The translations under genes and the position numbers were made by a program. From assembly GCA_010093815.1 (NCBI GenBank), contig ML996565.1: 64,000 nt of DNA. One strand, written 5' to 3'. The notes under the pieces are model-generated. The model had not been told where the DNA came from, searched no databases, and saw only the letters and a list, made by a program, of their open reading frames with translations. Shown piece by piece: positions 7,457-40,989 of this stretch. This DNA is from Pseudovirgaria hyperparasitica (taxonomy: Eukaryota). Positions within the stretch are counted from its first letter, which is position 1. Every line of letters begins with the position of its first letter.

Positions 7457-7586
7457 ATGGTAGACTTGTTCATAGACGACTTTCGAGGGGCTCAATATGC
7501 ACGAGGAACTTCAGCATATAACAAAGCTGCTGTGTAGTACGTAACTTCCACTTATGGAAAGTCCCGTGACCTGAGTCCCGATTCGA
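7457..7586 (+). pseudogene. 5' fragment of an FAD-linked oxidoreductase gene interrupted by the retroelement nest
   Basis: ATG 7457 reads MVDLFIDDFRGAQYARGTSAYNKAAV*YVTSTYGKSRDLSPDS(I) and continues in frame at 41126 once the insertion and one TCGA copy are removed; TATAAAA at ~7420; in-frame TAG at 7535. Confidence 0.85.
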
Positions 7587-7718
7587 TGTGGGAACTTTGG
7601 TAAATTAGACGTGGCAAAATTAATTAACGTGTCTACTAAGTCTATCTAAGTACTATATATACTAGCCTAACGCTAAATAAGATCTAAGTAACGGGGATTA
7701 CCTAATAGGAATTCTATA
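7587..7718 (-). repeat. Element A 3' LTR (132 bp)
   Basis: Direct repeat of 40990-41121 differing by C/T and G/A transitions. Confidence 0.93.
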
Positions 7719-8100
7719 TCTTCCCCCTCCTAATTATACGAGCTTCTATAAGGCTATTAAAGATAATTAACGGAGTTAGAATATATAATATAGGGAGGTA
7801 GGCGTGTGAAATCTCTTCGGTGCTAGGCCGTATTAGTAACACGTCGTATAAGGGCGGTAGTCTAAGCTTATTTTAGTGCTAAATAGTTACCTTTACTATT
7901 CCTATATTCTACCGTCCTTTAACCTTATATTTCTTAACTAATTTAACCTTTTCCTTAGTTTTTCCAGCGCTAATTCCTTTTAATAATATCTAATAATATA
8001 GCTGAAACTCCTACGAACTTAGAAATTACTCCGATTAATACTATAATTTTATATATATAAACTTTAACTTTACCTTTTTCCCTTCTAACTTAAACTTCCT

Positions 8101-9000
8101 ATAGCGGATATAGTTATAAACGAGGATCTTCGTCATGCTTTCTTAGGTCCTCCGTACGGAAATCCTAACTAGTTATTACTTAATAAAGTATTAGCGGTAA
8201 ATAAAGGTGCTCTAGATAGTAGATTAAGTTACCTTATTCCTTAAGTGTAGGTTAACTATATAGTTCATAAGAGTTACTTAAAGATAGCCTATAGCTATCT
8301 ATATCCGAACGGGCCTTAGAGTTTACTATTCTTTTAAGAACTAGACCTAGAAGATAAAGCTTTAGCTTAGTTAATTAAAGAAGGCGGTTAGAGTCTTAAA
8401 CCTAAGGTCTCTAAGGCTGAAGTTAAGGCTCCGGCCTCTTAAGGATCGGTAATAGCTATTAACGAGCCTCTTCCTAAGGTAGAAGGTAATTCGTTTAATA
8501 TACCCTTCTATAAGAATCCCGCTAACCTATATAGATCTTCTAGGTAAAGTTACGGGTCCGGAGTCTACGTTAATTACCCTTAATAAGCCCTTTAAAGCCC
8601 CTATAAAAGCTAGTCGGTTCGCGAACCTATCGGAAGACTCTAATAATATTTTCTATTCTAAAAATAAAGATAGAGAAAGCTCTAGGTTATTAGACCTTAA
8701 TAGTAATACGTTAATCGAAGTTAACGAGCTCGGCGATATAGTTACTTCTAAGGTAACTAAGAAAGGTAAGTCGCTAAGTCTTATATTAAGATTCTAGTTC
8801 CTAATTCTTATCTAGGCTCTCGTCCTAGAATACCTAGGACTCTAGTAAAGACCCGTAGTACCGTAAGAACTCTATTAAAGGTGTTTAACAGCCCTAAAAC
8901 TCGCTCTATAACTTCTAAGCTAGCTATTATAGACCTTAAAAGTCCTAATAAGGTCGTTAAGAAGACTCCCGTAAAGCGAAAGGGGTCTATAGCTTCTCGT
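8101..9000 (+). pseudogene. Element A antisense accessory gene, 5' half (RIP-decayed, spliced)
   Basis: TATA-like run 8051-8060, ATA (RIP of ATG) at 8101; introns 8486-8534 (GTAATT..GCTAAC..TAG) and 8766-8815 (GTAAGT..CTAAT..TAG) each restore an open frame; only TAA/TAG stops. Confidence 0.7.
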
Positions 9001-9238
9001 TATAAAGAGTAAAGACGTAGGATAGTAGTCTAATAGTTTATAGAGAGACATAGGAATGTATTTATAGAGTAGTCTTACTCTTATACGAGGTTGATTCCTA
9101 ACGAGTAGGAATCGGTTTATACGGTCTACTTATATAGTAACCTCGCTTAACCCAGCTAACTCATCCTAGCTCTAGCCGCTACGTGGCTATATGGATTAGA
9201 ATAGTCTATATAGATCTATTAGGGTTCCCGTCCTAATA
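9001..9238 (-). repeat. Element B1 3' LTR
   Basis: Matches 25036-25273 and the reverse complements of 31775-32012 and 39713-39950. Confidence 0.92.
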
Positions 9239-9717
9239 ATATCCTTTTTCTTTTTATGCTTTGCCCCGAAGTACTTAAGTATATATAATTCTAAGTCTCT
9301 ATAATCTATCGTATATCTATATATCCGTAACTAAGTTCCTATAACGTTATAACCATCCTTAATATAGGTAAACTCGAGATTCTAGTTTACTTTTACTAGT
9401 TTATATACGCGCTCATCCCTTACTTCGTGGCTACTACCTAGAATATATAATTACTACTTTAGTTAAGTATATATTTAGCTTCGCTCGCCTTTAATTTTAT
9501 TCTCTAGTATATCTACCTCGCTCTTAAGGTAAGTCGTTAATTTATATACTATCTTCCCTAGTTTAGGTTTAGAAGGGTCTATTATAGTCTATTCTTATTA
9601 GAACCGGTCCTATATAACCTATTCGCGTTATTACGGTTACTAATTTAGCTTTATTAATTACCGTTAAGGGTGGACGAATATTCCTTCCTTAGATCTCTAG
9701 CTAACGTGTGTATATAG

Positions 9718-10610
9718 ATGTCTAATACTAGTCCTATCTCTAAGCCTACCTCCTCCTCTTATAAGACTCGCTCTAAAGGTATTACCTCCTCCCCGGCTAC
9801 GCCGGCTAAGAAGCCTACCTATTAAGGTAGTATAAAGGCGCGCTCTAAGTCGGAGAAGAGGGTAGCTAGGGCTACTACTACTACTTCTACCTCTACTACT
9901 AATATAGCCACTAGTCGCTCTAATCTAGGTAATTCTAGTACTAAATTTATGGATGAAGCGGTCGTAAGTTCTCCCCTTACTCTAACGTATACGCCGTCTA
10001 CTCTACCTCCTCTAGAGGATGAAGAAGATCTCGTTATAGATGATAATCGCGAGCCCTTACGCTTATCTACGCCGCCGCCTCGCCGCTCTCCCTTCCGGTC
10101 TAATATAGACCGATTTAGTTACTCTAGATCCTTTTAGGACCTTAATATTCGCTCTAAACCCTAGCCTACTAATAATAAGGTCTAGGTTACTAAGGATACT
10201 AAACGTGGTCACGGTTTACGCTATAGAAAAACGGCGAACTATAGTTCGATATACTATAAGTATATTAAGGGCTATATAGCCGGCTCTAAATATCTCTTTC
10301 GCTCTAACTCTAGTATTAGCTACTACTCTACTAACCGCGACGGGCCTATACGCCCTATCTTTACTCTATCTACCCGCTACCGCCGCTATACTATAACTAG
10401 TAAGACTTATCTATAGGTAAGTATAATAGACTATCTTAGTCTAGTATAATCTAAAGTTATCCGCGCTAATATATTCTTAGGTTCCTATATATATATAAGA
10501 TATATATAATAACCTTCGCGTCCGCGAGACCCTTAGGGGTCCTTATAGCTATCTATCTACTATATAGAGGGAGTTTAGGGAGCGCTATAAGCTCTTCCTA
10601 GAGGTTATTA
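9718..10610 (+). pseudogene. Element B antisense accessory gene, 5' exons (continues at ~18913-19280)
   Basis: Long frame from ATG 9718 with only TAA/TAG stops (S/T/P/K-rich, then TAC/TAT codons spaced as CxxC...CxxC-x6-C); intron 10417-10480 GTAAGT..GCTAAT..TAG. Confidence 0.6.
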
Positions 10611-10630
10611 AAGTATAAGTTACGAACACG

Positions 10631-11206
10631 TGTTAGGCACGTGCCTACCAGTTGATTATACATGTATGTAGTAGTTGTATATAAGTAGTATACTCCACCC
10701 TTAAAGTAGTAGCTTTAAGATTCGGTCCTTTTAGTATAGTTAGTTAGTGCGTAGAGCCCGCCTCCTTATATAATCTTAAAGCTACTACGGGGTTATAGGT
10801 TTAACTCTCGGTCTAGTTAACTATTATTGAATTTCGCACGATTTCGTTTAGCTTACCACGTTACGTATACTTTATGTACGTGACGGATAACATAGTAGTA
10901 ACGTTACTATAGTAAGTTAGCGTGTCTAGTGCTAGAGGCGGCATTACGAGTATTAATTAGGTATACACATGATTCATTTATACTAGGCCTATTATAGCTA
11001 GTTTATCTTTCATAAGGTAGATACCCACGACGTGTAAGGGCACGCGCCTTCGAAAAGGGGAGATATTATTAGGCACGTGCCTGCTAGTTAATTATATATG
11101 TGTGTAGTAGTCGTATATAAGTAGTGTACTCCACCCTTAAAGCAGTAGCTTCAAGATTCGGTCCTTTTAGTATAGTTGGTTGGTGCGTGGAGCCCGCCTC
11201 CTTATA
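10631..11206 (+). mobile_element. TRIM-like non-autonomous miniature LTR element C (576 bp)
   Basis: 140-bp LTRs 10631-10770 and 11067-11206, 296-bp internal part with no evident ORF, PPT GAAAAGGGGAGA before the 3' LTR, TSD ACACG (10626-10630; right copy split by element D). Confidence 0.88.
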
Positions 11207-11829
11207 ACATGTAATGGATATAACCAAGGTGTTGCTGCAATGGTAATCAAGATATATTATGATTTAACTTAGTGAGTATAGGGATAAGCCGTATGGTTAT
11301 AGCTTTAAGTATAGTCTTAAGCGAGGTCACGTGATACCCCTATACTAGTCTCTATCTATCCCGGCTCCGTTATATGATGCTAGAGATAAGGTAAAGCCGA
11401 AGTCCATAACATACCCTTGTTCTCTAGGATCGTCCTAGGGACCGGCTTAGTGTTTTATATAATGATAACCGGCTCGGTTGGGTCTTGGGTTTACGGTCTT
11501 TATATCATACTATATAATAACCGTAGGGCTATATATTCCTTCTGGCAAGGTAGTAGCTTTTTATAGTAGCGTCCTAGCGGTCACGTGGCGGAGGTAGGCT
11601 CCTCGCATTACGGCGTGCTACGTCGGGTCATGTAAAGGTAGGGTAGCCTACGCACGAACCGCGCGTCCCGTTTTATTATTATCCGTTTTAGGACCGGCTA
11701 CTCTCCGGGCCAGGGGTTATATAGTAGTGGTAGGGTAGCTTGCGCACGACCCGCGTTTATTATTATTATCGTCCATTTTAGGACCGGCTCCACCCCGGCC
11801 CACACGATTTTCCCTAACGCGAGTATATG

Positions 11830-13400
11830 GGTCCCACGCCTAGCGACTTTCTTCTTCCTTAACTATTCTTACGCCTACTATCTCGATACCGCATAGTGGC
11901 TACCACGATATTAGTAAACTCGTATACTACCTCGCAGCTTCCATACTATTATTATAAGCGCTCTAGGCCTAAATAGTCCTATTATAGAAGCCGGCGCCGT
12001 ATCGGCGGTAGCTATAGGTGCTAGAGCTTAGGACCCCGACGATCGTCGCGCGCCTAGGCGCTAGGAACCAGCCGATCGTACCGTGAGTGGGTCCTGTCCC
12101 TACGCCGTTCCTCATACTAACTAGATAGACTATTCCTCCTACCGTACCCCGATAGGCTAAGCCTATTCGCCGTATAGGGCTATATATTATAGAGGGTAAC
12201 TTATTAGAAGACGAGCGTACCGAGTCCGTGTACTTCGTATATCGTATATATATAAAGACCCTAGAGAAAACTAGGGTACTTAGGTATATGCCGTCTCTGC
12301 GCCGTGGCGGCGCCTACTAATCTTAGAGCGTAGCTATAAGCCTAGCCGCGGCACTAACTATATAAAGTGCCACACGTCGAAGGGGACCTACTTATAGAAT
12401 ACTAAGGAGCTTGCTACGCACCCGGCCTTACGTAAGGCGCAGAGTCGTCTTAAAAAGTTTATACACGAGTCGGTTAATAATAACTTTAGCTATATAACGG
12501 ATCGTGGTAGTCGCGGCCTAGACCCGACAAAGCCTTTATCCGGTAAGTAGCCGCGTATAAACTCTAAGTTCTACCGTCTATATAAGGACTATAAGTCTAA
12601 CTTAGAGATTACCTATATCGCGCGACGTAACGCTAGTATTGTTAGTTAGGCTCCTATAACGCCTTATCGTGGCGCTATAACGTCGTTTAAGCCGCCGTAT
12701 CGCGGTAGTAGTAACCGTGGCTAGATTAGTAGCGTGATTCACTAGATGAATTAGTATATGTCCCATAACGAGGCCTAGATAGGTAAGCTACGCACTAGTG
12801 TCGGCACCTTATAGGTATATAAGCTTTATAAGCCTAAATACCTATTCTAACGCGTGACGTAGGGCACCATATAGTAAGTCGCGTCCGGGTTGGCCCGCCT
12901 AGCGGAGCTACTATCTCGCCGTCTTATTACTTAGGTAGTCATGGAGGATAAGGAGCCCTTATTAGATAGTAGCCGCTCGCGCCGACCCCGGCCCGTAGGC
13001 TATAGAGAGTCGCCGACTCGGAGCTCTCGTCATCGCCCTATTAGGCCCCCCTAGCTCCCTATTACCGCCCCTCCTCGTAAGTCCTCGCCGTCTTATCGTT
13101 AGCCCCGGACCCCTCCTCGCTACCGTGACCGCTCCTAGTCCTACGAGCGTCGTAGCCGGTCCCCCGCCTACCGCGATCGGTCTCCCCGCCGTTATAACCG
13201 GTCGTATAACTATTAGGACCGGTCGCACGACCGTCGCCGTCGCTCGGGTAGCCGTTAGTATCATTCCCGCGAGGATCGTCAAGCGTCGCGCCGCTATCGG
13301 TCGCCGGCCCGCCCCCGCCATGACCCTCCCGTAGACGAGTACGACTCGCCCTCGCCACCCGCCTAGATTAATGGCCGCCGCCGTCGTTAGGAGATAGCCT
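11830..13400 (+). pseudogene. Element D antisense accessory gene (RIP-decayed, spliced)
   Basis: Intron signals GTGAGT..CTAAC..TAG (~12083-12128) and GTAAGT at 12542; CxxC-x6-C-spaced codons at 12359-12391; R/P/S-rich low-complexity tail. Exon phases not all resolved. Confidence 0.5.
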
Positions 13401-13619
13401 AGGGGAGGACTAGGTGACTAACCTTATATTAGGATTTACGGATGAGGACGGTACCGGCCCCGGCGCCGTGTAAACCTAGGGTAGGGCTAGGTGAATAACC
13501 TTTTCATGTCTTAAGGCGGGTGTCGGTTTATTATTAGGTTACACTAGGTACTAGCGTTCGGCGTTTATTTCTTTCTTTCCTAAAATCTCTACTCTTATAT
13601 TAGGTTGTCGGGGCCGCCG

Positions 13620-16600
13620 TGGGCCTATAATAGTAGAGTAATATTACTACTTAGGGATGTGTTAGAGTCGTAGGCCGTTATATAATCGAGCGTCGCCATA
13701 TCTAGACTCGAACCGGTCTAGCGCCTCGGTATCTTCTACGTCCTCAAGTAGGACCTATATTAGTTATAACTAACCTTTCTACTTTACGAGCACCTGTCGC
13801 TTATTCCGCCCCCGTGTATTTTTTATACGTAGGATGTCCTTAACCTTATACTCCGCGACGTCCTCGTCTACTTCGTTAAGCTCGAGCGCTAGGCCCGGGC
13901 GGGTATCGAGCCGCTCTTAGCTAGGTAGGGGGTCCTCTACGGCGCGCTTGATAAGGCTTATATAGACTATTTTATAAAGGTCTCCGGGGAGGTTAAGGGT
14001 TACTATTAAGGGGGTAGGTTAGGCTATAACCCGGTATTTTACCTATAGCTAGTCGAGCTTCCGGCTTAGGCGGTTAGTCTTTATGTTCCGGAGGGAGAAC
14101 TATACTATATCGCTAACCTTAAAACGCTTAGCCGGGCGTCGTAACCGGTTTACCGAGTCTTAGGAGCGCTGCTCGGCCTAGGTAATAGCCGCTTAAGCTA
14201 AGGTAGTGCCGTCCTAAAGGTGTTTAAGGAAATTCATAGCCTAACCTTTCGCCGAGGTCGTAGAGGCGTTAGGGAGTGGCTACCGTGGCAATAGTTCGAC
14301 GTAGTATCCGTTTAGGAGTAAGTTTAGCGCTATACTAGTTACTAATAAGGTACGGTTATTAAGGGCGAGCTAACATACCGGGAGATATTCCGGCTAGTTA
14401 GTTTACTCGAAAGTCACTATAACGCGTAGTATAGCCTGCACCTCCTGGTTCGCACGCTTAGTACCGCCGTCCGTCTACGGGTAGTAGGCCGTAGAGAGGT
14501 CCTAGCGCACACCTATTATGGAGTAGAGGGTTATCTAGAACTACCTAAGCTAGTCCGAGCCCCGGTCCGTGATTATCAACTAGGGGAACCCCTAGAAACG
14601 CCACCACGTGTTACGGAACCGCGTAGCGTAGTCCTCGGCCACTATAGAGGTTATCGCCTCTAGCTAAATAAACTTTAAGAGCCGGTCTATAATAATAAGA
14701 AGATATCGGGGCCGGGACGGGTCCGATTAGGGGAGGTCGGTCATAAAATCTATAGAAATTTAGGACTAGAACTAGTCCGGCGTCGGAAGAGGCTAGAGGA
14801 GGCCAGGGGCCTTACGTTAGTTTATATAGGCCCTATAGTAGTTATAGTTTCGCACGAACTACTAGATATCGGCCTATATCCGCTCCTAGTAGTACTCCCG
14901 CCGAATGGCTACGTAAGTCTCGTTCTTACCGGGATGGCCCGCGAGGGGGGAGGTATAGGACTTCTAGATAATGGTCGTGGTAAGGGGTTCCCACTCGGGC
15001 ACCTAAATAACCCTCCGCTATATTAGTGTTCCGTATACCGATATAGCGTAGTCTATAACCTATTTAGTAGTAAGCGCCTCCGGTAGGAAGAGGCGTGCCC
15101 CGCCTACCACGGCCCCGTGGCGGGCCCGGTATACCGGGACTAACTAAATAGCCTAGTCCTAGAGCTCCTAGAGGTGGGGGTTGGTAAAGATGCTTCGTCC
15201 CTAGGGGAGATAGGACTCCCCGGAGCGGGTACTTACTAGTGCTATTCTAATGGCCCGTGGGGTCATGAGCCGTCCCCTTAGGAGGGACTTTTTAGATAAG
15301 TTCTAGTCACGGCGGCTTAGGGCATCCGGGCGGGCCGCCTAGGATCCCGGCCGGTATACGAGATCGTAGTTAAATAGTATAAGCTAGTCGGACCATCGTT
15401 ACTACCGTGGGATAAGAAGGTAAGACTTAGTAAAGTACTCGAGGTTTTTATAGTCCGTATAGACCGTGAAGGGGTGGTAGACGCTTTAGAGCTTAGGTTC
15501 CCACGCCTAGAGATACTAAACTACTATAAGGAGCTCCTTATCATGGATCGTATAGTTCCGCTAAGCGGCCGTGAGGGCCGCGGAATAGTAGGCCACCGGG
15601 TACTAAATACCCCGAACCTTTTAGGATAGGCATCCACCCGTCGCGTGTCCGGAGTAATCCGCCTCGACTATTATATCGCGTGTCTCGTCCTAGGACTAGA
15701 GGATTAGCCCGGTAATGAAAGCGTTCTTTAGCGTATTAAACGCGCGGTCCTTGGCCGGGCCCTAGTAGAAGGCCGTCCCGGCCTTAGTAAGGGCGTGGAG
15801 CGGGGCCGCTATGGTAGAGAAGTTAGGGAGGAAGTTATAGTAGAAGTTTACGAACCTAACGAACCGCCGGACGCCCCGGACCGTAGTTAGGGGCTTCTAG
15901 TCCCGGATAGCGGCGATCTTCTCCGGGTTAGGGCGGATTAACTCCCTAGCGGTAATAACGTAACCTAGGTACCGGACCTCCTTAGTAGCGAAACGGTATT
16001 TAGTAAGGTTATAGTAAAGGTCCGCCTTTATAAGGAGAGATAGGATAGTTTTTACGGCGGCCTAGTGGTCTTCTAACGTGCCCGGGGTGTATATAAGGAC
16101 ATTATTAAGATACGCTATATAGGTAACCCCGAGGACCCCGCTTAGTGCCCCGTTAATATAGTACTAGAAGGAGGTAGGGGCGCCGGAGAGACCGAAAGGG
16201 AGAACTATCTATTCGAAGAGGCCGAACCGGGTACGGAAGGTCGTCTTATGTTCGTCCCTAGCGGCGACCTATAGTTTATGAAATACCGCCCGGATGTCCA
16301 CCTTACTAAACCACGACGCATTACTAATGGTGTATAGGGTCTCGCGTATGAGTGGTAGCGGGTATCGGTCCTATTCAGTAATGCTATTAAGGGCCCTATA
16401 GTTAATATATAGCCGCTACTTCCCTCCCGGCTTAGGGATAAGGAGTACCGGCGCCCCGGCCGCTAAGGAGCTAGCCCGTATCCATCCCTTATCTATGAGA
16501 TCCGTAAGCTAGCGACGGAGCTCCACGAGTTATTTCTAAGATATAGCGTAGAGGGGTCCCTAGGGGAGGTTCATGGGGGTTCCCGCCGGTATAGACTTAA

Positions 16601-18630
16601 TGCGGATATAGTAGTCGGTGTTCCCTCTATGGGGAGGTAGCGCCGACGCCTTTTCCTTATTAAAGAGATCGCGGTAGGTGTATAGCGTTAACGGGAGCGG
16701 GCGCCTATCCTCCGTAAGCTTAGTCGCGTCCCGGCCGGTTACCGGAGGTGACTAGGGGAGCATAAGTTATAGGAGGCGGGTGACGTCGCGGATACTAGTA
16801 GCGACTACTCGCCTACGGCGGTAAGCCGTCTCTAGACCCCTAGGAATATAGCCCTTCTTGGTAAGGACCCGGATGCTTATTAGGCGTCTATAGGTATTAA
16901 TATCCCGGGCTATAAGGCCGTGGGCGCGGTAAAGCGTGATTTCGCCTACGCGTATATCGATAACGGCGCCGGCCTAGTAGAGCCACGGGCTCCTAAGGAT
17001 GAGGTCCCGGTTAAGCCCGGGCACCATATAGGTGGTAAGGCGTTATCGCTACCCCGCGATGTCATACTAGATGGTAACGACTTCCGTAATCTCCGGTCCT
17101 AACGCTCCGTTAGCGGCGAGAGCCACTCGACGACGTAGAACCGAGATACACGACTTAGCCACGTCCGCCGTAAGGGCCGGGCTAACCGCCGCGAAACACT
17201 CGCACCCTATATCTACTAAGGCGTCCATATGCTTCCTATTCTAGAGGAATAGCGATATAATGGGTGGGGGTCCGTCCATAACCCGAGCGGGCGCGCTGTC
17301 CTCTAGGTCGGAGCCGTTATCCGGGTCGCCCATGGCTTCGTTCCTTACTAAATGTGGTAACGTCCCCCGACCCGGGCTTTAGTAGGGGGCTATACTTCCC
17401 CCGCCTTAGAGTTAGAATTAGTATTATCCTAAGCCGGGGCCGCAACCTTAAGCGCTCGTATATTAATAGCGTTTAGACAGCCCCGGTGTTAGTAGCCAGC
17501 CTAGCCGCACCGGGTATACACGCCCGCCGTGCGGCGCTCCTAGAATAAGTCCTTCGGGATCCACGAAGGAGTCTCTTTCTTCTTAACCCCGTCCCTACCC
17601 TTTACCGTTAGAGACGCGGCTCGCTCCTTACCCTTTATCTTAACGGCCTTAATAGCGACCGCCGACATCGTCGTGTCGCCGTCCTTATCCTTACTAGGCC
17701 TATTTTAAGGTGCGGCGCTTTGCCTAGTGCGGAGCCGGAATAACTCTATATCTATGCCGATATCCCGAAGGCGGCCTACGGCGGCCTTATACTAGTCTAG
17801 GAGGCCCCGGTTTAGGGCCACCGCCTAGGTCTCCTAGTTAAGGCCGTCCCGGAGCCGCATAAGCTTCTAGTCGTCGGCCTAGTATATTCCCCTAGCCTCC
17901 TAGAGGGCGGTATAGAACCGCACGAAGTACTCCATAAACGGCTCCTTTACCTTTTACGTAATTATATTTAACCGCTAGAGGGCCCGCTCTTTGGCATGTG
18001 TGTCTCTAAACTAGAATTTAAGGTAGTCTAAGAACGCGTGCGGGTCCTAGTCGCCGTTTAGCCCCCTAGTGGAATACACGGCGCTAACCCCCCTCTATAC
18101 CTTAGGCGCTAGGTTAGCCTAAATAAGGGCTATTTAGTCCCTATGGGTGCCGATAAAGTCGGCGTCCCGGGTAATCTTATACCGTATCGTGACGGACCAT
18201 GTACGGAAAAGGGCCTTAGACCCGTTATACGGGTCGCCAAGGGGGAGGGGCTTCCTCTTAGGAGCCCGGTCGAGTATAATATACGGCGTAGAAAGTGGTA
18301 AGGCGGGAGCGCGCGTAGGAAAGGCTGGTTCGGGCCCGTATAGGCGTTAGGGCGCTACCGGGGAGGAGTCGGGCTAGGGTAGGGACGAGTCGCCATAAGT
18401 TAAGGTAGCGGGAGTACGGCTATGTAACTCGACCGTAAGGAGGCGGGCGTCGATACGTTATAGAGCCGTATAGACGCTATATTCGATATTAGATATCCGA
18501 GACTCGCTTACCGCTTAGACGGCCGTAATAGACTCATGGATAGACCGTATCTCGTCCCGAAAGCTAAGGAAGGAGTTAGAGAGTTACCGTATTAGATTAG
18601 AGTCTTACGGGTTAAGACTGTCTTATACTA
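13620..18630 (-). pseudogene. Element D gag-pol (zinc knuckle, PR, RT, RNase H, IN, chromodomain)
   Basis: After reversing RIP: CTRCGQAGHQHRGC ~17480-17525, AYLDDVLI ~16095-16120, chromodomain-like EY.V.DIL...VLVKWKGW..PTW ~13700-13860. Confidence 0.85.
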
Positions 18631-18912
18631 TAAGGCCACGTATAGGAAGAGATAATCGAAGTTAAATTAATGTAATAGATATAACCAAGGTGTTACTATA
18701 ATGGTAATTAAGATATATTATGATTTAACTTAGTGAGTGTAGGGATAAGCCGTATAGTTATAGCTTTAAGTATAGTCTTAAGCGAGGTCACGTGATACCC
18801 CTATACTAGTCTCCATCCGTCCCGGCTCCGTTATATAATGCTAGAGATAAGGCAAAGCCGAAGTCTATAACAAACACGTTAATTATTTTTAATACCTATT
18901 GATATTTCTAGC

Positions 18913-19280
18913 CGCCGCGAGATCCCTAGCGCCTAGGCTATCTATTCTAGGGAGTCTATCCTAGCTATAGAGGCCGTAGAGAGGATTCGCTCTATCCCCT
19001 CTCGTCCGTCTCGCGCTACTAATAGATCTTATAAGAGGTCTACTATTTCTCCCTCTAAGTCGCCTTATAAGAGGGTATATATTCCCTTCTAGATTATTCT
19101 AGATTATATTAGCTAACTTTAGACCTAGTCGCTGCGCTCCGGCGCTTAAGGCTCTTCCCTCTAGGCTCTAATGGATTAGGTTATTACTCTAGAGGCTAAG
19201 GTTATTACCCTCCGCCGCTATATCGTGCGGTTAGAGAGGACTATACTAGAGGTTATAACGGATAATAAGATAGAGGAGTA
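18913..19280 (+). pseudogene. Element B1 antisense accessory gene, 3' exons
   Basis: Frame resumes after acceptor TTTCTAG ~18911; further intron GTATAT..GCTAAC..TAG ~19075-19122; charged coiled-coil-like end. Confidence 0.45.
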
Positions 19281-19849
19281 GCTCTATGGTTCTGGCTCTG
19301 TGTGTTAGCTCTATATATTCTAGATCTACTATAGGTGGTGCGCGCCGGCTCTATTTACCTGGCTTTTATCCGTTTTAGTCCTTTTTTAGACCGTTTAGAT
19401 ACCCGTCGGCTAGTTTCTAGTAATTTAATTCTTAACTTAACGATATTATGTGTGCGCTCGCTTAGCTTATAACTATCGGTTTCTATATTCTAATTTTCCT
19501 TAAGTCACCTAAGTATAGGCACCGTATATTAATTAGTTTATCTCTATGAATTCTATTAGAGTACCTAAACTAGTAGCCTAGTAGTTATTAGTTCGGGTAC
19601 TCTAACCTTTTATATTTTATGTTAAGAGTTTAATTCTATGGTAGGGTATCTTTTTTAGGTTCTTAGTCCTATATTTTTCTCGTATATAATAGTCCATATT
19701 AGTCTATTCTAGACTCTTCTATTATAGTATATCGCGTTACGTTTCTAAAATAGTTACTTACGCTTTCTTCGCGTCTAGTAACCGTGCGACACTTAAATTA
19801 TAGGGCTACCTTATAGAGTTTTCCTAGTGCGCGTCTAGATTTCCTAATT

Positions 19850-22800
19850 AAGTACTTCGTTCTCTATGATATCCTTCTTCTTTTTATAATAACCGCGACG
19901 TCGCTATGTTTATATTAATAATATACTATTCTATATCTTTTACTTATACGCAGCTATTATAGAACTTAAGATATATACCGCTGGTTCCTAGGTGTCCTCG
20001 TCCTTAGTGCAGTCCTTCTAACGGATTCTATATTTCTAAATACCATCTTTATTAATTCTATGTTTAATAATATAGTCTACTTCGAACACGTCTAGTCTAT
20101 CTTAGGGTATAATAGAGTATAACTATACGTTCGTGCGGTTATACACGTTAGGTTAAAATCTTTTAAGTAGTAAGACGTGGAACACATTATAGATTCTTAT
20201 ATCGCTTTCTAAGTCGAGCTTATAGGCTCTTATACTAATATAACGTTTGATTTAGAAGGGACCAGCTATTTTATAATTAAGCTTCTTATTTACTTATAAC
20301 GTTTATATATTATAGACGTTAAGAAGGACCTTATCGCCCTCCTCGTACGTCTAATCCTTAGCTAACCTATTATAGTACTTCGTATACGAGTCGTTTACTT
20401 ATTAGATTATAGCGCGATAGTTACGTACGGTTTTAAAGATTTTAATCGCTAATTCCTAAGCGTGGACGTTCACGTCTATTATTCGATTAAATTAGACTAT
20501 ATAAGGCTTAAAACCTATCCTTAGACTGCGTCCGAGGTTCGCCTAGAAAGGTATAATACTAGTCATGCTATAACGACTATTATTATATATGAACTCTACT
20601 ATACTTAGTAGGGAGGCCTAGTCGTCCTTACTCGAAATTATAGAATACGCGTAGATAGGCTTCGAGCGTCTAGTTCTATCGCTCTATCTAGCTATCCGTC
20701 TAAGGATGAAATACTATAGATATATTTCTATTCATGCTTACTATTTCGTAGAATAACGTCTAGAATTTAGACGTGAAGGTACTTCCTCGGTCCGTAACGA
20801 TCCTTTTTAGTATACTATAGACCTTAATAATCTCGTTCTAGAATACCTACGCTAGTTCTTTAGATATAATCGTCTTCTACACCGGGATATACCTAGATAT
20901 CTTTATAAGTCTATCCACGATAATAAGAATAGAATTATAACTTATTCTAAGTATCTCGCTTAGAGGTAAGTTAACTATAAAATCTATAGTAACGTCTTTC
21001 TATATAAAGAGGGGGACTAAAAGAGGCTATAAATTCCTATATAGCTTATACCTAGGGGCCTTCATTCTTTAATAAATCGGATAAGTAGCTATCTATTCTT
21101 CGACGTACTTAGGTATATCTTCCTAAAAATAGTACTAACGAATTAAGCTTAGGGTACGTATATACCTAAAGTGTCCTACTAGGTTAGCGTTATGGTATCG
21201 GCTAACTATATTAAATTACGCGTTATCTATTAGTATATAGTACTTTCTATTATAGTAAAGTAAGCCGTCTATAAAGGTCTACTTATAGTCTACTTTAGTC
21301 CGTAATAACCTATCTTACTATATTTTATATAACTTTAAAACTATCGGGTCTATCTTCTATAGATCTATAATTAACTAGGCGAGGTTAATTAGATATTCAC
21401 GCCAGGCATTATCACCCTTCCCAATAGCGCTAATAAACGGCCTACTAGGGACTTCGGTACCGCGTCTTTAGTTACCGGCTTCGGTCTTAGAGATTCGATT
21501 ACCGGCATCGACGTTAGTATCTCGCTAATCGTCTAATAACTTAAAATCTAACCTCGTCCTTAAGAGTTAGGCCTATAGCTACTCTAGGACCCTATAGCTA
21601 CTATAATTCTAGGCGCCTTCTTTATAGTTAGGTCTTCTTAATATTCTATTAGCTAGGTTTATACTTCTAGGTTAATAGTAGATTATAAAGTGAAAGTTCG
21701 TAAGCTACTTAGCCTATTAAACCTATCAACGGTTTAAAACCGTCATACTTATAAACCCCTTTAAGTTATAGTAATTAGTTAGTAACTCGACGTTATATAT
21801 AGTACCTTTAAGATAATATCGCTACTATTTAAATGACTCTACTATTACTAGTAGCTCTTAGTTATAGATAATATATCTAGTCTTAACATTAACTATTTTA
21901 CGCGAGAAGAACGTAACTAGATACTATTAGACCTTTTTAGACTTAGTTAGTCTAGGCTAGGAGAGAATACCTAAGATTATAAATTCTAACGCGTCGGTTT
22001 CGACGTGGATAGATTTAGTTAGATCGAAGTATACTAGTAATGGGGCAGTAATAAATACCTCTTTGATTTTCTCGAAGGAGGCCCTTTCGCCTTCTAATAA
22101 TTCTATAGGCTACAATTTAATATTACGCTATTTCTATCTACCGCGGACCGTAATAGACGAATCTATAGTAGTAGTACGCGCGTTAAGCGGTGCTACTAGC
22201 CGGGAGAAGTACTTAACGAATTTTTAGTAGTAATTAGCGAATCTAATAAAGACACGTATATCTTAAACCGATTTTAGTTTAGGCTAGTCCACGATAGTAG
22301 CGACCCTATCCCTTTCTATAGTTATACCTTAATTAGTAATAACGAAGCTAAGGAAGTTAACGTGGTCCTAGTAGAACTTATATTTAGATAGCTTAATATA
22401 TAGCTTATATTTTTCTAGTCTATCTAGGACTACGCGTACGTGCTAGATATATTCTTCTTCGTTATTAGAGAAGATAAAAATGTCGTTAAGGTATACGATG
22501 CACGTCGTGTTAAGTAGGCCTACTAGCGCGTTATTAATGTACGCTTAGAAGGTCCCTAGCGCGTTAGTTAGTCTAAAAGGGACTACTATATACTTAAAGT
22601 ATCTATAACGGGTCCTAAACGCCGTTTTCTACTTATCGCCCTTCTTAATATATAGGCGGTAGTAGGTATCGCGTAGATCGAGCTTAGTAAAGATCTTCGT
22701 ATACCCTAGTCTATTAATAGACTCGGAGATAAGAGGTAGTAGGTAACAATTCTTTCGCGTAATATTATTTAGGCTATAGTAGTCGATACATAGACGGAGA

Positions 22801-25000
22801 CTCCTATCCTTCTTCTTTATAAAGAGGATTAGAGCTCCGGCTAGGGATATACTAGGCCTAATCTATTCTCGCGTAAGGTTCTTTTCGATGTATTCTCGGA
22901 GGACCTATAGCTTAGGTTCTAATAGAGGGTAGATAGGTCCGTGTGGGGGTTATTAACCGTTCTTAAGGTTAATAGTAAGATCGGTAGATTGGTATTAAGG
23001 TAATTCGGACGAGTCGATCGCTAACGCGATATATTAGTATATTTTATACTAATATAGTAGGTTTTCGTCTACTTTAATACTAAGTTCTCTATTTTAAGTA
23101 AGTAAGAGGACGTAGATAGTAGAGATTACCTTTTTATAGTTCTTCTAGAATTATTTATCGTTAACTAGCTATACTAGGTTCTATTATAGTGGGTGCATGC
23201 ACTAGCCAGCTATTTTCTAGATAAAGTCTAGTTTCGGGTTATATTTTTCGAGCTATAGTATACCGAGAATCATGTTAAAGGGGCTATCTACTACGATAAA
23301 GGTTAAGTAGTAGGGTTTCTACTTCCCCCCGCTATCCTAGATACCGTATTTAATAGTATAGGTACCCTACGATTTAATAGGACTATCGATACTATAGAAG
23401 GTAGTATCTATTAATACTTAAATATCGACGTTAAGTTCTCGTGCTTATTAAGTCGATATAACGTTAGTAGCTAAACCGCTATTAAGTATTACGGTCTAAT
23501 GTTATCCACGGGGGACCTTAATAGGCCTAGCCTATAGTTCGATATACTAGTTAGCTAGTTATCCCTCTATTTTAGTTATATCTATAAGTCACGAGGGTTT
23601 CTCGTAGGTAGTTAGTTTTTTATATTATATACTAGGTAGTTAGGCGCGATATATCCTAGCTACTAGTACTTATAGTATATAACTAACTTAGTATCTATAT
23701 TAGTATTCAGTGGTTTCCTAGAGCGGTACTCGGGTACTATATGGCCTATCCTACTATAAGTATAGTAGGTGACTTTAGGTCGTTTATACGAGTCGTTTCT
23801 CGCGTCTTAATATATCGACCGGTAGAAAGATCCGCGGTATAGGCCTCGTCCTCTTAAGTTCGTAGAGTAGTAGTACCCATAAGGTATTCCGCGCGATCTA
23901 TTACTAAACCGGTCCTCTTTAGATGATTTCGTATCGGATTAGATTAGTAGGGATAGTCGTGCGCCTATACGGCGTTGGTTATTTATTATATACTAGTGTC
24001 GTTCTACGAGATTCGCGAGTGCCTAAAGGTTAGTAGAGATAGACGTTATAAGGTTAATACGTTTCTTTACGCTCGGATTAAGGGACCTTTTAAAGTCGTC
24101 GTATTATTAAACCATATAATCTTTCTCGGCTTCTCTCTAGAGAGGTCGGAGGTATTTAAGAAGTTATAACGGGGATTATCTTTCTCGCTATTAAGTCTTA
24201 AAGATATAGCTCTAAGCCTATTCGCGTCGCTCGGCTCTATCGCCGAAGTATTAAAGAAGGAATTCGGTGAACGTGTCCTAGTTATACGTATCCTTAGAGT
24301 GTTTAATTCGATATACCATCTAACGTTTAGATAGCGTTAGGTCTAGGTAGTTCTATACGAATCTAATCTTATTACTATCGTTCGTGAATAGGTGGAAGAA
24401 TCGGCTATACTAGTAAGTCTATTCGTGAAAGCTCCTTCTAGTTTTACCGTCGAAGTAAGGTAGTTTCTTAGGCTAAGGTAACTAGAATAGTAATAGACTT
24501 AGTTAGACTATTTTAGCTTAAGTTAGTCTATATTAGTATAGGTTAGTTACTACTAGTACTAAAGCGCGTAGTACGGCTTTGAGTCTAGTAGTTTATCCTT
24601 ATACTTTATTAAGTTCGCGAAGTTACTACTCGAGCTAAGTCTAACGCTACCTCTCTATATATAGCTTAGTATATACGTCGTCGTAAGGCGTGGTTAATAT
24701 TAGTTAGTTCTAATAAATTAGTTCGTTAACGTTAATAGGGTCTAGTCTTATAGTAAGGATAGGTCTAGTATAGTATAAACTAGACCGCGATGGAGTATAA
24801 TAGACTCCTTCCTTATTATCTAGGTAATCTTCTATGGTTATACGGAATACCGTACTAGTTATTAGTGCGATAGCCTATAGGGTATGCTCGTCGGTGGAGG
24901 TGGTCGTAGAGAGACTATTCTCTTCGTTTAGATTTAGAGAGAGTCTCTCGTATAAGGTAGTACTACGGGTATTATAGCGCGTAGTAGAAGCTATCTCTAT
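19850..25000 (-). pseudogene. Element B1 gag-pol
   Basis: Reverse complement of B2 gag-pol; RT core (CIVYLDDI, RIP-altered) ~22475-22505. Confidence 0.87.
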
Positions 25001-25035
25001 AAGCTACCGTCGTGCTATATAGAGAGGAATTAAAA

Positions 25036-25273
25036 TATAAAGAGTAAAGACGTAGGATAGTAGTCTAATAGTTTATAGAGAGATATAGGAATATATTTAT
25101 AGAGTAGTCTTACTCTTATACGAGGTTGATTCCTAACGAGTAGGAATCGGTTTATACGGTCTACTTATATAGTAACCTCGCTTAACCTAGCTAACTCATC
25201 CCAGCTCTAGCCGCTACGTGGCTGCATGGATTAGAATAGTCTATATAGGTCCGTTAGGGTTCCCGTTCTAACA
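25036..25273 (-). repeat. Element B1 5' LTR
   Basis: Direct repeat of 9001-9238, ends ...CTAACA followed by TSD CTCGT. Confidence 0.92.
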
Positions 25274-25278
25274 CTCGT

Positions 25279-26500
25279 AAGGTTAGTACGATAGCGCAAC
25301 CTACGGTAAATAAACTTAATAGCTATAGCGATGCTAAGATCGAAGTAGTAGGTTACATAGGCCTCCGAGTTCGATCTAATTACTACTTCTTTTTAGGGAA
25401 GTCTATTAAGTTTATATAGTAGTTAGCTTACTAGAGTAAGTCCTTATCTCGTTAATTATCTTTAACGGTTAGCTAACTTATTCTAGGGTAGCTATTCTCG
25501 GACCCTCCTATCGACGGAACGCTCTATAAGGAATTTATCGATAGTCTTATTAAGGCGTACGCTAGTAGTTAGCACGCCTCGATTCTAAAGGATCTACTTC
25601 TATTCTATATAATGGATAAGTTCGGTAACTACTATTATTCTTAGGATATCGTGGTAGGAGGAGAGATCTTTCGGGATCCTTCAAAACGCCTAGATAGGTT
25701 ATATTCCTATACTATTCCGGCTATCCTAGGCATGATGGCTCGCGGCGTATACTAGTACTTTAGCGATAGCGTCTATAGTTCTTATTCTACTAGTAAAGGC
25801 ATCTTTAGGGAGTGTGTATAGCTTTTTTCTAACGGGTTCCTACTATTTAAAGGTACCTATTTAAACTATTTCCACTAAGGGAATAGGAAATTCTATAGTA
25901 TATCGCGTTATAAGTTATTCCTTTATATCGTTAAAGGCTTTTAATAGGTTTAACGCGTTCCTATAGTGTACCGTAGCGAGCGTAACGTCATTAAAAAGCG
26001 CTAATATACCGAGTAGTCTTTATTTATAGAGATAACTAAGGCTACTAGAAAGTATTTGGCTACCAAACTTTATTAAAAGAAGTTATTAGGTCTTAAGGAG
26101 ACTAGGTCAAACTCTAAGGCTAGTCCTTCGCTCGTGAGTTAGATTTATATCTCGTATAATCTCTAGCTAATTAAAAGGTTATAGCTATAATAGAATAGAT
26201 GTATTACGGCGGTCCGGAGGTCCTTATTCCTAGCTTTAATAATACTATACCTCCCGACCCGAGTATTATCCCTATTCGTTCTATATAGAACCTTAAAGAT
26301 AAAGGACTTCCGCTTAACGAAGCCGTTAAAGATTGGTTTAGTCGTCCGATAAACGCGTTTAGCGAGGTTAGCTACACGCCTTAAGGGCTACTATATAAGT
26401 TCTTAATTAACGATAGCATGCCCGAGGAGGGCGAGAAGGTATTAGTATAATTTACGAAGAATCCACTGAATTCTACTCGTAAGGTCTAGGACTAAGTAGG
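25279..26500 (+). pseudogene. Element A antisense accessory gene, 3' half with DUF3716-like Cys6 motif
   Basis: Frame continues across the B1 insertion (TCT CGT|AAG GTT); intron 25436-25486; 25774-25896 reverts to CxxC-x9-C-x14-CxxC-x8-C with KGIFRECV and GxCxNC. Confidence 0.68.
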
Positions 26501-31774: not shown

Positions 31775-32047
31775 TGTTAGGACGGGAACCATAATAGACC
31801 TATATAGACCATTCTAATCCATGCAGCCACGTAGTGGCTAGAGCTAGGTTGAGTTAGCTAAGTTAAGCGATGTCACTATATAAGTAGACCGTATAAACCG
31901 ATTCCTACTTATTAGGAATCAACCTCGTATAAGAGTAAGATTACTCTATAAATACATTCCTATATCTCTCTATAAACTATTAGACTACTATCCCACATCT
32001 TCACTCTTTATATTTTAATTTCTCTCTATATAGCACGACGGTAGCTT

Positions 32048-35000
32048 ATAGAGATAGCTCCTACTACGCGCTATAATACCCGTGGTACTACCTTATATAA
32101 GAGACTCTCTCTAAATCTAAACGAAGAGAATAGTCTCCCTATAACCACCTCCACTAATAAGTACACCCTATAGACTATTATACTAATAACTAGTACGGTA
32201 TTCTATATAACCGTGGAAGATTACCTAGATAATAAGGAAGGAGTCCATTATACTCCATCGCGGTCTAGTTTACACTATACTAGACCCATCCTTACTATAA
32301 GACTAGACCCTATTAACGTTAATAAACTAATTTATTAGAACTAACTAATATTAACCACGCCTTACGACGATATATATACTAAGCTATATATAGAGAGGTA
32401 GCGTTAGGCTTAGCTCGAGTAGTAACTTCGCGAACTTAATAAAGCGTAAGGATAAACCGCTAGACTCGAAGCCGTACTACGCGCTTTAGTGCTAGTAGTA
32501 ACTAACCTATACTAATATAGACTAACTTAAGCCGAAATAGTCTAACTAAGTCTATTACTATCCTAGTTACCTTAGTCTAAGAAACCACCTTACTTTGATA
32601 GTAAAACCAGGAGGAGCTTTTACGAATAGGCTTACTAGTATAGCCGATTCTTCTACCTATTCACGAACGATAGTAATAAGATTAGGTTCGCATAGAACTA
32701 CCTAGACCTAACGCCATCTAAACGTTAGATAGTATATTAAATTAAATACCCTAAGGATGTATATAACTAGGACACGTTCACCGAATTCCTTCTTTAATAC
32801 TTCGGCGACAGAGCCAAGCGACGCGAATAGGCTTAGAGCTATATCTTTAAGACTTAATAGCGAGAGAGATAATCCCCGTTATAACTCCTTAAATATCTCC
32901 GACCTCTTTAGAGAGAAGCTAAGAAAGATCGCATGGTTCGATAATACGACGACTTTAAAAGGTCCCTTAACCCGAGCGTAAAGGAACGCATCGACCTTAT
33001 AACGTCTATCCCTACTAATCTTTAGGTACTCGCGAATCTCATAGAATAATATTAGCGTATAATAAATAACTAACGTCGTATAGGCGCATGACTATCCCTA
33101 TTAATCTAATCTAATACGAAATCGTCTAAAGAGAACCGGTTTAGTAATAGATCGCGCGGAATACCTTATAGGCGCTACTACTCTATGAACTCGAGAAGAT
33201 AAGGCCCGTACCGCGGATCTTTCTACTAGTCGATATATTAAGACGCGAGAAACGACTCGTATAAACGACCTAAAGTCACCTACTATACCTATAGTAGGAT
33301 AGGCTATATAGTACCCGAGTACCGCTTAGGGAAACCACTAAATACTAATATAGATACTAAGTTAGTTATATACTATAAGTACTAATAGCTAGAATACATC
33401 GCGCCTAACTACCCGGTATATAATATAAAAAACTAACTACCTACGAGAAACCCTCGTGACTTATAGATATAACTAAAATAGAGGGATAACTAGCTAACTA
33501 GTATATCGAACTATAGGCTAGGCCTATTAAGGTCCCCCGTGGATAACATTAGACCGTAATACTTAATAGCGGTTTAGCTACTAACGTTATATCGACTTAA
33601 TAAGCACGAGAACTTAACGTCGATATTTAAGTATTAATAGATACTACCTTCTATAGTATCGATAGTCCTATTAAATCGTAGGGTACCTATACTATTAAAT
33701 ACGGTATCTAGGATAGCGGGGGGAAGTAGAAACCCTACTACTTAACCTTTATCGTAGTAGATAGTCCCTTTAATATAATCCTTAGTATGCTATAGCTTAA
33801 AAAATATAACCCGAAACTAGACTTCATCTAGAAAACAGCTAGCTAGCGTATATACCTACTATAATAGAACCTAGTATAGCTAGTCGATAATGAATAATTC
33901 TAGAAGGACTACGAAAAGGTAATCTCCGCTATCTACGTCCTCTTACTTACTTAAAATAGAGAGCTTAGTATTAAAGTAGACGAAAACCTACTATATTAGT
34001 ATAAAATATACTAACATGTCGCGTTAGCGATCGACTCGTCTAAATTACCTTAATACTAACCTAACGACCTTACTATTAACCTTAAAGACGGTTAATAACC
34101 CCTATACGGACCCATTTACCCTCTATTAGAACCCGAGCTATAGGTCCTCCGAGAATATATCGAAAAGAACCTTACGCGAGGATAGATTAGGCCTAGTATA
34201 TCTCTAGCCGGAGCTCTAATCCTCTTTATAAAGAAGAAGGATAGGAGTCTCCGTCTATATATTAACTACTATAGTCTAAATAATATCACGCGAAAGAATC
34301 GTTACCTACTACCTCTTATCTCCGAGTCTATTAATAGACTAGGGCGCGTAAAGATCTTTACTAAGCTCGATCTACGCGACGCCTACTACCGCCTATATAT
34401 TAAGAAGGGCGATAAGTAGAAAACGGCGTTTAGGACCCGTTATGGATACTTCGAGTATATAGTAGTCCCTTTTAAACTAACTAACGCGCTAGGAACCTTC
34501 TAAGCGTATATTAATAACGCGCTAGTAGGCCTACTCGATACGACGTGCATCGTATACCTTAATAACATCCTTATCTTCTCTAATAACGAAGAAGAACACA
34601 TCTAGCACGTACACGTAGTCCTAGATAGGCTAGAAAAACATAAGCTATATATTAAGCTATCTAAATATAAGTTCCACTAGGACCACGTTAACTTCCTTGG
34701 CTTCGTTATTACTAATTAAGATATAACCATAGAAAGGGATAGAGTCGCTACTATTATGGACTAGCCTAAACTAAAATCGGTTCGAGACATACGTGTCTTT
34801 ATCGGATTTACTAATTACTACCGAAAATTCGTTAAGCATTTCTCCCGGCTAGTAGCACCGCTTAACGCGCGTACTACTACTATAGATTCGTCTATTATAG
34901 TCCGCGGTAGATAGAAATAGCGTAATATTAAATTATAGTCTATAGAATTATCGGAAGGCGAAAGGGCCTCCTTCGAGAAAATTAAAGAGGCATTTATAAC

Positions 35001-37200: not shown

Positions 37201-37789
37201 TAGGAAATCCAGACGCGCACTAGGAAAACTCTACATAGTAGCCCTATAATTTAAGCGTTATACGGTTACTAGACGCGAAGAAAGCGTAAATAACCATTTT
37301 AGGAACGCGACGCGACACACTATAATAGAATAACATAGAAGAGTCTAGAATGGACTAATATAGACCATTATACACGAGAAAAACATGGGACTAAGAACCT
37401 AAAAAAAGGTACCCTACCATAGAATTAAACTCTTAACACGAAATATAAAAAGTTAGAGTACCCGAACTAATAACTACTAGGCTACTAGTTCGGGTGCTCT
37501 AATAGAATTTATAGAGATAAACTAATTTATATACGGTGCCTATACTTAGGTGACTTAAGGAAAATTAGAATGTAGAAACCGATAGTTATAAGCTAAGCAA
37601 GCGCATATATAATATCGTTAAGTTAAGAATTAAATTACTAGAAACTGGCCGACGGGTATCTAAACGGTCTAAAAAGGACTAAAATAGATAAAAGCTAGGT
37701 AAATAGAGCCGGCGCGCACCACCTATAGTAGATCTAGAATATATAGAGCTAGGCATAGAGCTAAACCCATAGAGCTAGAACCATAGAGC

Positions 37790-39234: not shown

Positions 39235-39955
39235 TATATATATACATTAGCTAGAGATCTAAGGAAGGAATATTCGTCTACCCTTAACGGCGATTAATGA
39301 AGCTAAATTAGTAACCGTAATAACGCGAATAGGTCACATAGAACCGGTTCTAATAAGAATAGACCACTATAGACCCTTCTAAACCTAAACTAGGGAAGAT
39401 AGTATATAAATTAACGACTTACCTTAAGAGCGAGGTGGATATACTAGAGAATAAAATTAAAGGCGAGCGAAGCTAAATATATACTCGACTAAAGTAGTAA
39501 TTATATATCCTAGGTAGTAGCCACGAAGTAAGGGATAAGCGCGTATATAAACTAGTAAAAGTGAACTAGAATCTCGAGTTTACCTATATTAAGGATAGTT
39601 ATAACGTTATAGGAACTTAGTTACGGATATATAGATATATAATAGATTATAGAGACTTAGAATTATATATACTTAAGTGCTTTAGGGCGAAGTATAAAAA
39701 GAAGAAGGATATTATTAGGACGGGAACTATAATAGATCTATATAGACTATTCTAATCTATATAGCCACGTAGTGGCTAGAGCTAGGTTAAGTTAGCTAAG
39801 TTAAGCGATATTACTATATAAGTAGACCATATAAACCGATTCCTACTCGTTAGGAATTAACCTCGTATAAGAGTAAGATTACTCCATAAATACATTCCTA
39901 TATCTCTCTATGAACTATTAGACTACTATCCCACGTCTTTACTCTTTATAAGATA

Positions 39956-40900: not shown

Positions 40901-40989
40901 ATATAAGGGGTAAGATAACTACCCCTTAGGAGGCATCGCCGAAGCGATAGCCTCCCTAGGAGGATAAAAACTAGATTTCAGCTACTAGA

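Follow-up and report, generated by a model that had tools for sequence, protein, structure and literature searches.

Ty3/Gypsy retrotransposons can carry an additional gene on the strand opposite gag and pol. The closest fungal example is Boty/BcGypsy1, in which the antisense gene brtn is located between pol and the 3′ long terminal repeat (LTR) (Zhao et al., 2011, Virology 417:248, as described in PMC8365987, PMC7264820, and PMC4227169). In plants, antisense genes of the aORF-3R type are present in Grande (GENE23), RIRE2, Retand, and PvRetro13; they are described as having no database similarity, some of the products are nuclear and a regulatory role has been proposed, the function being given as not known (PMC7264820). 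The class II transposon REP9 (IS3EU-like) of Zymoseptoria tritici carries DUF3716 genes (PMC8232023). Here we analysed a stretch of 64,000 nucleotides of contig ML996565.1 from Pseudovirgaria hyperparasitica (assembly GCA_010093815.1), hereafter the window, in which four Ty3/Gypsy elements, belonging to three families, lie nested. Repeat-induced point mutation (RIP) has inactivated every one of them; the copies are dead, and nothing in them is functional now. We think it rather probable that in each family the long tail separating pol from the 3′ LTR holds the remains of an antisense additional gene of the aORF-3R/brtn class.

According to the published description of brtn, Boty shares with the window the element type (Ty3/Gypsy) and an extra opposite-strand gene between pol and the 3′ LTR; it differs in the fungus and in the families, and here all copies are RIP-dead. 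The plant aORF-3R genes have the same position and orientation as the frames described below, but belong to non-chromovirus lineages, no Cys motif is reported for them in the account cited, and homology to the window frames is not expected. REP9 is likewise described as a fungal transposon with cargo genes of unknown function; it is, however, a DNA transposon and not an LTR element with an antisense gene, and the window has no DUF3716 match. The window cases would be additional members of the known antisense aORF class, and the class itself is already in print. No paper that connects antisense genes of LTR elements with a Cys-cluster motif was found in a literature search in which subscription journals were thinly covered.

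The elements lie in a low-GC block at approximately 7.5-41 kb of the window, with about 50% GC on both flanks. Self-comparison and six-frame Pfam scans, for which stops were read as X, resolved positions 7585-41123 into the four nested elements. The outermost one, family 3 (7585-41123, minus strand), is host to both copies of family 1: copy 1 is located at 9001-25273 on the minus strand and is interrupted at 10336-18941, and copy 2 is located at 31775-39950 on the plus strand. The family 2 element (11209-18875, minus) is nested within family 1 copy 1. A first-pass annotation, made from the letters of the window alone, had drawn other element boundaries; its element A is family 3, its B is the 3′ part of family 1 copy 1, and its D is family 2.

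That annotation had noted a region of roughly 2-3 kb between pol and the 3′ LTR in all three families. By coordinate arithmetic, the end of the reverse transcriptase (RT)-RNase H match is separated from the 3′ LTR by approximately 3.9 kb in family 2, 4.3 kb in family 1, and 5.0 kb in family 3. For comparison we used relatives from metagenome contigs, 79 loci obtained by scanning with an alignment of the four window pol stretches; 32 of them have recognisable LTR pairs. The distance is at most 2.6 kb in 24 of these 32 and at least 2.9 kb in the other eight, so that the window tails exceed those of the 24 by about 1.7-2.8 kb, which also speaks against a long tail as a general rule. Scans of viral contigs with pol gave no relatives.

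The clearest antisense gene relic is found in family 1, where an ORF (open reading frame) relic extends over 9718-10416 on the plus strand, opposite gag-pol and between pol and the 3′ LTR, as in the aORF-3R/brtn class. It starts with ATG, comprises 232 codons (9718-10413) with four TAA/TAG stops, and ends at TAG|GTAAGT. An S/T/P/K-rich N-terminal part is followed by an acidic patch and by a basic end rich in Tyr, which might formerly have been Cys. The other five frames contain 9-52 stops, and the RT frame of the same element has 21 stops in 369 codons (5.7%). Only one of 2000 dinucleotide-preserving shuffles had four or fewer stops in any frame (mean 14.8). Three-base periodicity reaches a chi-square of 63 at 9541-10440 in copy 1, compared with at most 25 in its own gag-pol, and it recurs in copy 2 with a chi-square of up to 44. 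The copy 2 version of the ORF (38619-39233, minus, 205 codons, ended by a run of N) shows 81% protein identity to that of copy 1. The antisense gene relic in family 1 thus has good support.

The first-pass annotation had proposed such an accessory gene for each family. Stops, periodicity and shuffles sustain this for family 1; families 2 and 3 are compatible with it, weakly so. It had also taken interruption mainly by TAA/TAG as a mark of the antisense frames. This carries no weight: TAA and TAG dominate all six frames across the block, with TGA accounting for 0-6 of 4-119 stops per frame. Stop type and stop density discriminate poorly, because stops also make up 5.4-6.5% of the true pol frames and TAA/TAG prevail everywhere.

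The family 2 tail contains a candidate antisense frame of about 110 codons with three stops at 12317-12650 (plus), for which the coding strand is uncertain. Periodicity is 26-28 at 12259-12858, comparable to that of the element's own pol. Evidence for an antisense gene in family 2 is mixed. In family 3, candidate antisense frames are located at 8483-9000 (plus), including an open stretch of 104 codons at 8483-8797, and continue at 25279-26133 (plus, about 6% stops). When the target-site duplication (TSD) of the family 1 insertion is removed, the basic S/T/K/P-rich frame of family 3 runs in phase across this insertion to 25279. Some evidence exists for family 3 as well, but it is weak. The three families have in common the position and the orientation of these frames, a basic N-terminal stretch approximately 170-200 codons upstream of a motif, and the Cys/Tyr spacing of that motif.

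All three motif sites had been located exactly by the first-pass annotation, and all are on the strand opposite pol, in the interval from pol to the 3′ LTR. The family 1 site (10252-10410, plus) reads YYKY-x9-Y-x28-YRRY-x6-Y, with Tyr at every position in both copies. The family 3 site (25774-25896, plus) reads YSSY-x9-C-x14-YLNY-x8-Y and has one intact Cys, in FRECV. At the family 2 site (12289-12391, plus), CRLC in frame 1 is followed by YIKC-x6-Y in frame 2, with three intact Cys codons. Scanning all six frames of 33 kb for a six-position C/Y pattern, defined post hoc from these sequences, gave four matches: two at the family 1 site (one per copy), one at the family 3 site, and one at the true integrase zinc finger. 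Restricted to occurrences with at most two stops, it was seen twice, compared with a mean of 0.38 per shuffled block (200 shuffles).

Intron-like sites were scored strictly as GTRAGT..CTRAY..YAG with fungal distances between the parts. In family 1 a site of 64 nt (10417-10480, plus; GTAAGT...CGCTAAT...TTAG) starts directly after the ORF relic. The family 2 tail has a site of 46 nt (12083-12128, plus), and the family 3 tail has sites at 8766-8828, 25436-25491, and 26134-26193 (all plus). Five strict sites were counted in 10.7 kb of antisense tails, none on the sense strand of the tails, and one in 20.7 kb of antisense gag-pol cores. Since GTRAGT is biased to the antisense strand throughout, the fair test is the one per antisense GTRAGT, in which 5 of 12 in the tails compare with 1 of 17 in the cores (Fisher p = 0.03). 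Intron-like sites of the kind claimed for these tails are enriched only modestly, and some of them, as delimited, fail to join the best frames.

An alternative that we regard as possible, if unlikely, is that an antisense gene was only ever present in family 1; families 2 and 3 would have non-coding 3′ regions or captured junk as tails, and their C/Y motifs would be chance products of the Tyr-rich translations that RIP-mutated DNA gives. It would explain that the antisense frames of these two families, with about 6% stops, have no fewer than several other frames, and that no similarity between the families was detected. It would also agree with the longer open frame of family 2 lying on the sense strand (114 codons, 11969-12313, over part of the candidate stretch). 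Chance matches are readily obtained for parts of the motif: Cys and Tyr together make up 7.7% of six-frame residues, half-motifs match 85 and 42 times in 33 kb, and even the full pattern, with its post hoc definition, has the shuffled mean given above. What argues for genes in all three families is that elsewhere in approximately 66,000 codons the full pattern occurs only at the true integrase zinc finger, that both independent pattern matches lie in antisense tails at a similar distance from a basic N-terminal stretch, and that in all three tails the intron-like sites are concentrated on the antisense strand. The open stretch of 104 codons in family 3 and the pol-like periodicity of family 2 point in the same direction.

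How the motif residues are to be read depends on the decay of the copies. The two family 1 copies are 92% identical, and 548 of the 567 substitutions between them are transitions, which is a RIP signature. Families 1 and 2 are high-copy in the genome. When contigs of four sequencing runs (X1-X4) were placed on 9650-12700 at 80% likeness, thousands of short X1 and X2 contigs were found there, with 80-100% likeness. The un-RIPed letter is more often the one in the window copy, C>T plus G>A being counted at 160 places and A>G plus T>C at 67 (X1). At 12299 the window has kept the G of a TGC codon, where all covering contigs have A (14 of 14 in X1, 9 of 9 in X2). A de-RIP from the two family 1 copies left the element full of stops and the motif Tyr residues unchanged. 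Tyr residues and stops are identical in the two copies, which therefore cannot reveal the original residues.

Runs X3 and X4 carry the same species label and come from another sample. They cover only seven and eight, respectively, of the 30 depth bins of 9650-12700, chiefly at approximately 10770-11204, and X4 also at 11474-11542. Their contigs resemble the region mainly at about 10770-11204, with approximately 90% likeness.

Only four of about 17 motif positions encode Cys today. Known zinc-binding sites of the same elements provide a control. In place of the integrase zinc-finger C-x2-C, family 1 now has YPIY and family 2 YNYY, both under Integrase_H2C2 matches. In families 1 and 3 every Cys of the gag CCHC-like knuckles now reads Tyr, and family 2 keeps two of three; the regular expression used also matched one non-knuckle site in RNase H, and the other matches were assigned to gag by position. 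The number of Cys left in the antisense motif (none in family 1, one in family 3, three in family 2) ranks the families as the gag knuckles do. Because the gag and integrase zinc-finger cysteines of the same copies read Tyr, reading the antisense motifs as former Cys is plausible, though unproven. The first-pass annotation had argued that RIP turned Cys codons into Tyr and Gln and Trp codons into stops; the integrase and gag controls agree with this logic, and for the motif sites themselves former Cys stays unproven.

The antisense genes might instead be real and the Tyr genuine, so that the product would be a disordered, basic, Ser/Thr/Tyr-rich protein with no zinc site and unrelated to zinc-cluster proteins. 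We consider this improbable. It would account for the uniform Tyr of both family 1 copies, for the empty exhaustive profile search, for the absence of any Zn_clus or DUF3716 signal, and for a first triad with x9 instead of the x6 of Zn2Cys6. It is countered by the bona fide zinc-finger Cys that have become Tyr in both copies, by the Cys kept at three (family 2) and one (family 3) motif positions, by the G at 12299 against A in 23 of 23 other contigs, and by the alternation of Cys and Tyr at equivalent motifs in relatives. That the coding strand of the tails is the sense strand, with a third ORF or a C-terminal extension of pol past the chromodomain and antisense frames that are mirror images, is very improbable: sense frames are open at 9822-10118, 11969-12313, 12962-13417, and 13062-13367 and periodicity is blind to strand, but the family 1 antisense frame has an ATG start and four stops against 9-52 in the sense frames, the tail sense strand has no intron-like site, and the sense frames are not contiguous with pol.

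The relics of an antisense gene in each tail, the reading that we prefer, have to be set against a number of results that weigh on the other side. The antisense translations match no protein family. In Pfam neither Zn_clus nor DUF3716 nor any other family matched the antisense frames: a six-frame scan of 7000-32001 (E ≤0.01) gave nothing there, and the four motif stretches stayed without a match up to E 10, in a scan that includes PF12511. No homologue was found at E ≤0.01 among the 333, 344, and 409 word-sharing proteins for the frames of families 3, 2, and 1, in searches limited to proteins of 163-520, 131-419, and 127-406 residues, respectively. A HMMER profile of both family 1 copies gave no matches among 1,835,955,588 representative proteins. 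The tails of the three families show no mutual similarity in any frame (best blastp E 0.018) and no significant similarity to the 79 related loci; neither did the exons of one family of relatives (L043, see below) or profiles of two relative motifs match the window significantly. Every motif Tyr and every stop of the family 1 ORF is common to both copies, the ORF is partly low-complexity and CT-rich, and one sense frame over it has only nine stops. In family 2 there is the sense-strand frame mentioned above, and in family 3 periodicity at the motif is not significant, as is to be seen beside a pol that is hardly periodic either. The intron enrichment is modest, and some sites miss the best frames. 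The best scores in ESM Atlas were 0.85 and 0.86, to fungal clusters, and serve as leads only.

The first-pass annotation had further suggested a recurrent module of zinc-cluster-like proteins and had pointed to the Zn_clus and DUF3716 families. Zn(II)2Cys6 clusters have the spacing C-x2-C-x6-C-x5-12-C-x2-C-x6-8-C. Even with Tyr read as Cys, the window motifs deviate from that of PF00172, with x9 in the first triad and a loop of 14-28 residues; most positions are Tyr, and the window has no match to the family. The CxxC-x6-C half-motifs are alike, and in relatives PCSRCAKEGLVC (E 0.23) and CRECKRKKMTC (E 0.34) resemble one half of the cluster. The DUF3716 profile (PF12511) was not matched either, where a true member with Tyr for Cys could be missed. 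Formal membership in either Pfam family is not supported, and neither, with no similarity detected between the three element families, is one shared homologous module.

Recurrence in a wider sense found some backing among the relatives, in which three other unrelated Gypsy lineages have antisense ORFs with CxxC-x6-C near the 3′ LTR; none of them showed significant similarity to the window tails. In L005 gag and pol are intact ORFs, pol ending in a chromodomain at 5097, and an antisense frame of 420 codons with two stops lies tail to tail with pol and carries CGGC-x6-C...CREC-x6-C. Its protein has no homologue among the other related loci, and the sole PDB sequence retrieved with it was a nuclear-receptor zinc-finger chain (E 0.4).

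The second lineage consists of L043, L045, L060, and the diverged L050, which have in common, between pol and the 3′ LTR, an antisense ORF of approximately 325 codons that is split over three frame pieces. Its motif is CIKC-x12-C-x13-C-x2-C-x6-C, with Cys in L043 where L045 and L060 have Tyr. An intron (GTGAGT...CAG, phase 0) starts two codons past the last Cys. It agrees in position and phase with the family 1 site of the window, which may be a coincidence.

The third lineage is a family of 11 copies (L066, L032, and nine others) with antisense C-x2-C-AKEGLV-C-x13-C-x2-C-x8-C. In six of the 11 copies the motif is located 1953-2158 nt downstream of the RT-RNase H match, approximately 0.2 kb inside the 3′ LTR. 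Each of the seven Cys columns mixes Cys with Tyr (4 to 10 Cys of 11), and Trp alternates with stop likewise. Summed over the copies, the motif frame has 45 stops, compared with 78-119 in the other five frames. The antisense frame of this family seems to begin within the 3′ LTR and to enter the internal region, in which case part of it would be duplicated in the 5′ LTR.

Sub-threshold Pfam half-matches to Zn_clus were obtained at E 0.34 for L005 and E 0.23 for L038, and one of the other Gypsy lineages gave Basidiomycota-like ESM Atlas matches. Pfam scans of 42 antisense ORFs of relatives detected only neighbouring genes or inverted elements. Downstream of pol in the relatives, strict C..C-x6-C was counted 12 times antisense and 10 times sense, which is no overall excess. 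In L048 (14246-15973, minus) an ORF with a SET domain (E 5.6e-11) and a TPR ORF are located downstream of the Gypsy pol; they look like a neighbouring host gene rather than cargo.

If the three ascomycete families of the window are taken together with at least three lineages in the metagenome contigs, it is conceivable, though doubtful, that many independent fungal Ty3/Gypsy lineages carry a small, intron-bearing antisense gene just inside the 3′ LTR. Its product would be a nuclear protein based on repeated, zinc-binding CxxC-x6-C half-clusters, and these proteins would form an unrecognised, fast-evolving class of DNA or chromatin factors, encoded by the elements, that steers the transcription of its own element or counters host silencing. 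Such a class could have been overlooked because RIP rewrites Cys as Tyr and repeat masking hides the gene from annotation.

For the window we picture a heterochromatic nest of four elements in three families. In a live element, a promoter of its own, located just within the 3′ LTR, would have driven transcription of the antisense gene toward pol. The introns of the gene, being antisense to the genomic RNA, would not be spliced there and would be retained through retrotransposition. The predicted product starts with a basic part rich in S/T/P/K, continues with an acidic patch, and closes with a Cys-rich end; it would most likely be a small nuclear factor that binds nucleic acid or chromatin and serves the element's own expression or copy control. 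RIP would later have turned most Cys codons into Tyr codons and Gln and Trp codons into stops. While nesting, long tails, and the family 1 relic are observed, the genes of families 2 and 3, the zinc-binding Cys, and any function are inferred, and an anti-silencing or copy-number-control role, as proposed in the first-pass annotation, is pure conjecture.

If the preferred reading is true, Boty-type antisense accessory genes extend to several more fungal Gypsy families, with a shared design that combines a disordered, basic head with a half-cluster module rich in Cys and with an intron able to survive retrotransposition. This would give a concrete handle on the self-regulation of fungal retrotransposons or on their interplay with silencing, and it would warn annotators that RIP masks cysteine motifs as tyrosine. 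The copies at this locus are of value as sequence fossils and not as working genes.

LTR pairs, TSDs, and pol domains bear out the claim of three Ty3/Gypsy families with unrelated LTRs. The four LTR pairs are 91-96% identical, TSDs were recognised for the two copies of family 1 (CTCGT, AGATA) and for family 3 (TCGA), and the terminal CA is now TA after RIP. Family 3, approximately 9.1 kb long once its two insertions are removed, has LTRs of 136 nt at 7585-7720 and 40988-41123 that are 91% identical and have TCGA (4 bp) at both flanks. RVT_1 (30115-29650) and RT_RNaseH (29422-29047) were detected on its minus strand by Pfam. Family 1 has LTRs of a 236-nt family; those of copy 1 (TSD CTCGT) are located at 9001-9236 and 25036-25273 and are 96% identical, and those of copy 2 (TSD AGATA) at 31775-32012 and 39715-39950 are 93% identical. 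The pol domains of copy 1 on the minus strand are RVT_1, RT_RNaseH, Integrase_H2C2, SH3_Tf2-1 (E 3.7e-12), and Chromo (E 3e-4, under the Pfam cut-off). The LTRs of family 2, 206 nt long and 93% identical, are located at 11209-11414 and 18670-18875, and its minus strand carries RVT_1 (E 2e-23), RT_RNaseH, and Integrase_H2C2. In families 1 and 2 the Pfam matches come as RT, RNase H, and integrase, in that order; in family 3 they comprise RT and RNase H only.

Downstream of the family 2 chromodomain, 12859-13460 is GC-rich, strongly periodic, of low complexity, and open on both strands. Its translation is rich in Arg and Ser on the antisense strand and in Gly, Arg, and Asp on the sense strand, and the stretch may be a C-terminal extension of pol.

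Family 1 copy 2 contains a run of exactly 490 N at 38129-38618, an assembly gap or withheld sequence, which covers the counterpart of the second half of the motif, of the intron-like site, and of the interruption point of copy 1. Several ORFs at this run are artefacts of the N. Copy 1 has approximately 934 nt where copy 2 has the 490 N. Adjoining the family 2 insertion, two direct repeats of 138 nt, 91% identical and 436 nt apart, are located at 10633-11206; they may represent a small LTR-like element or a tandem duplication.

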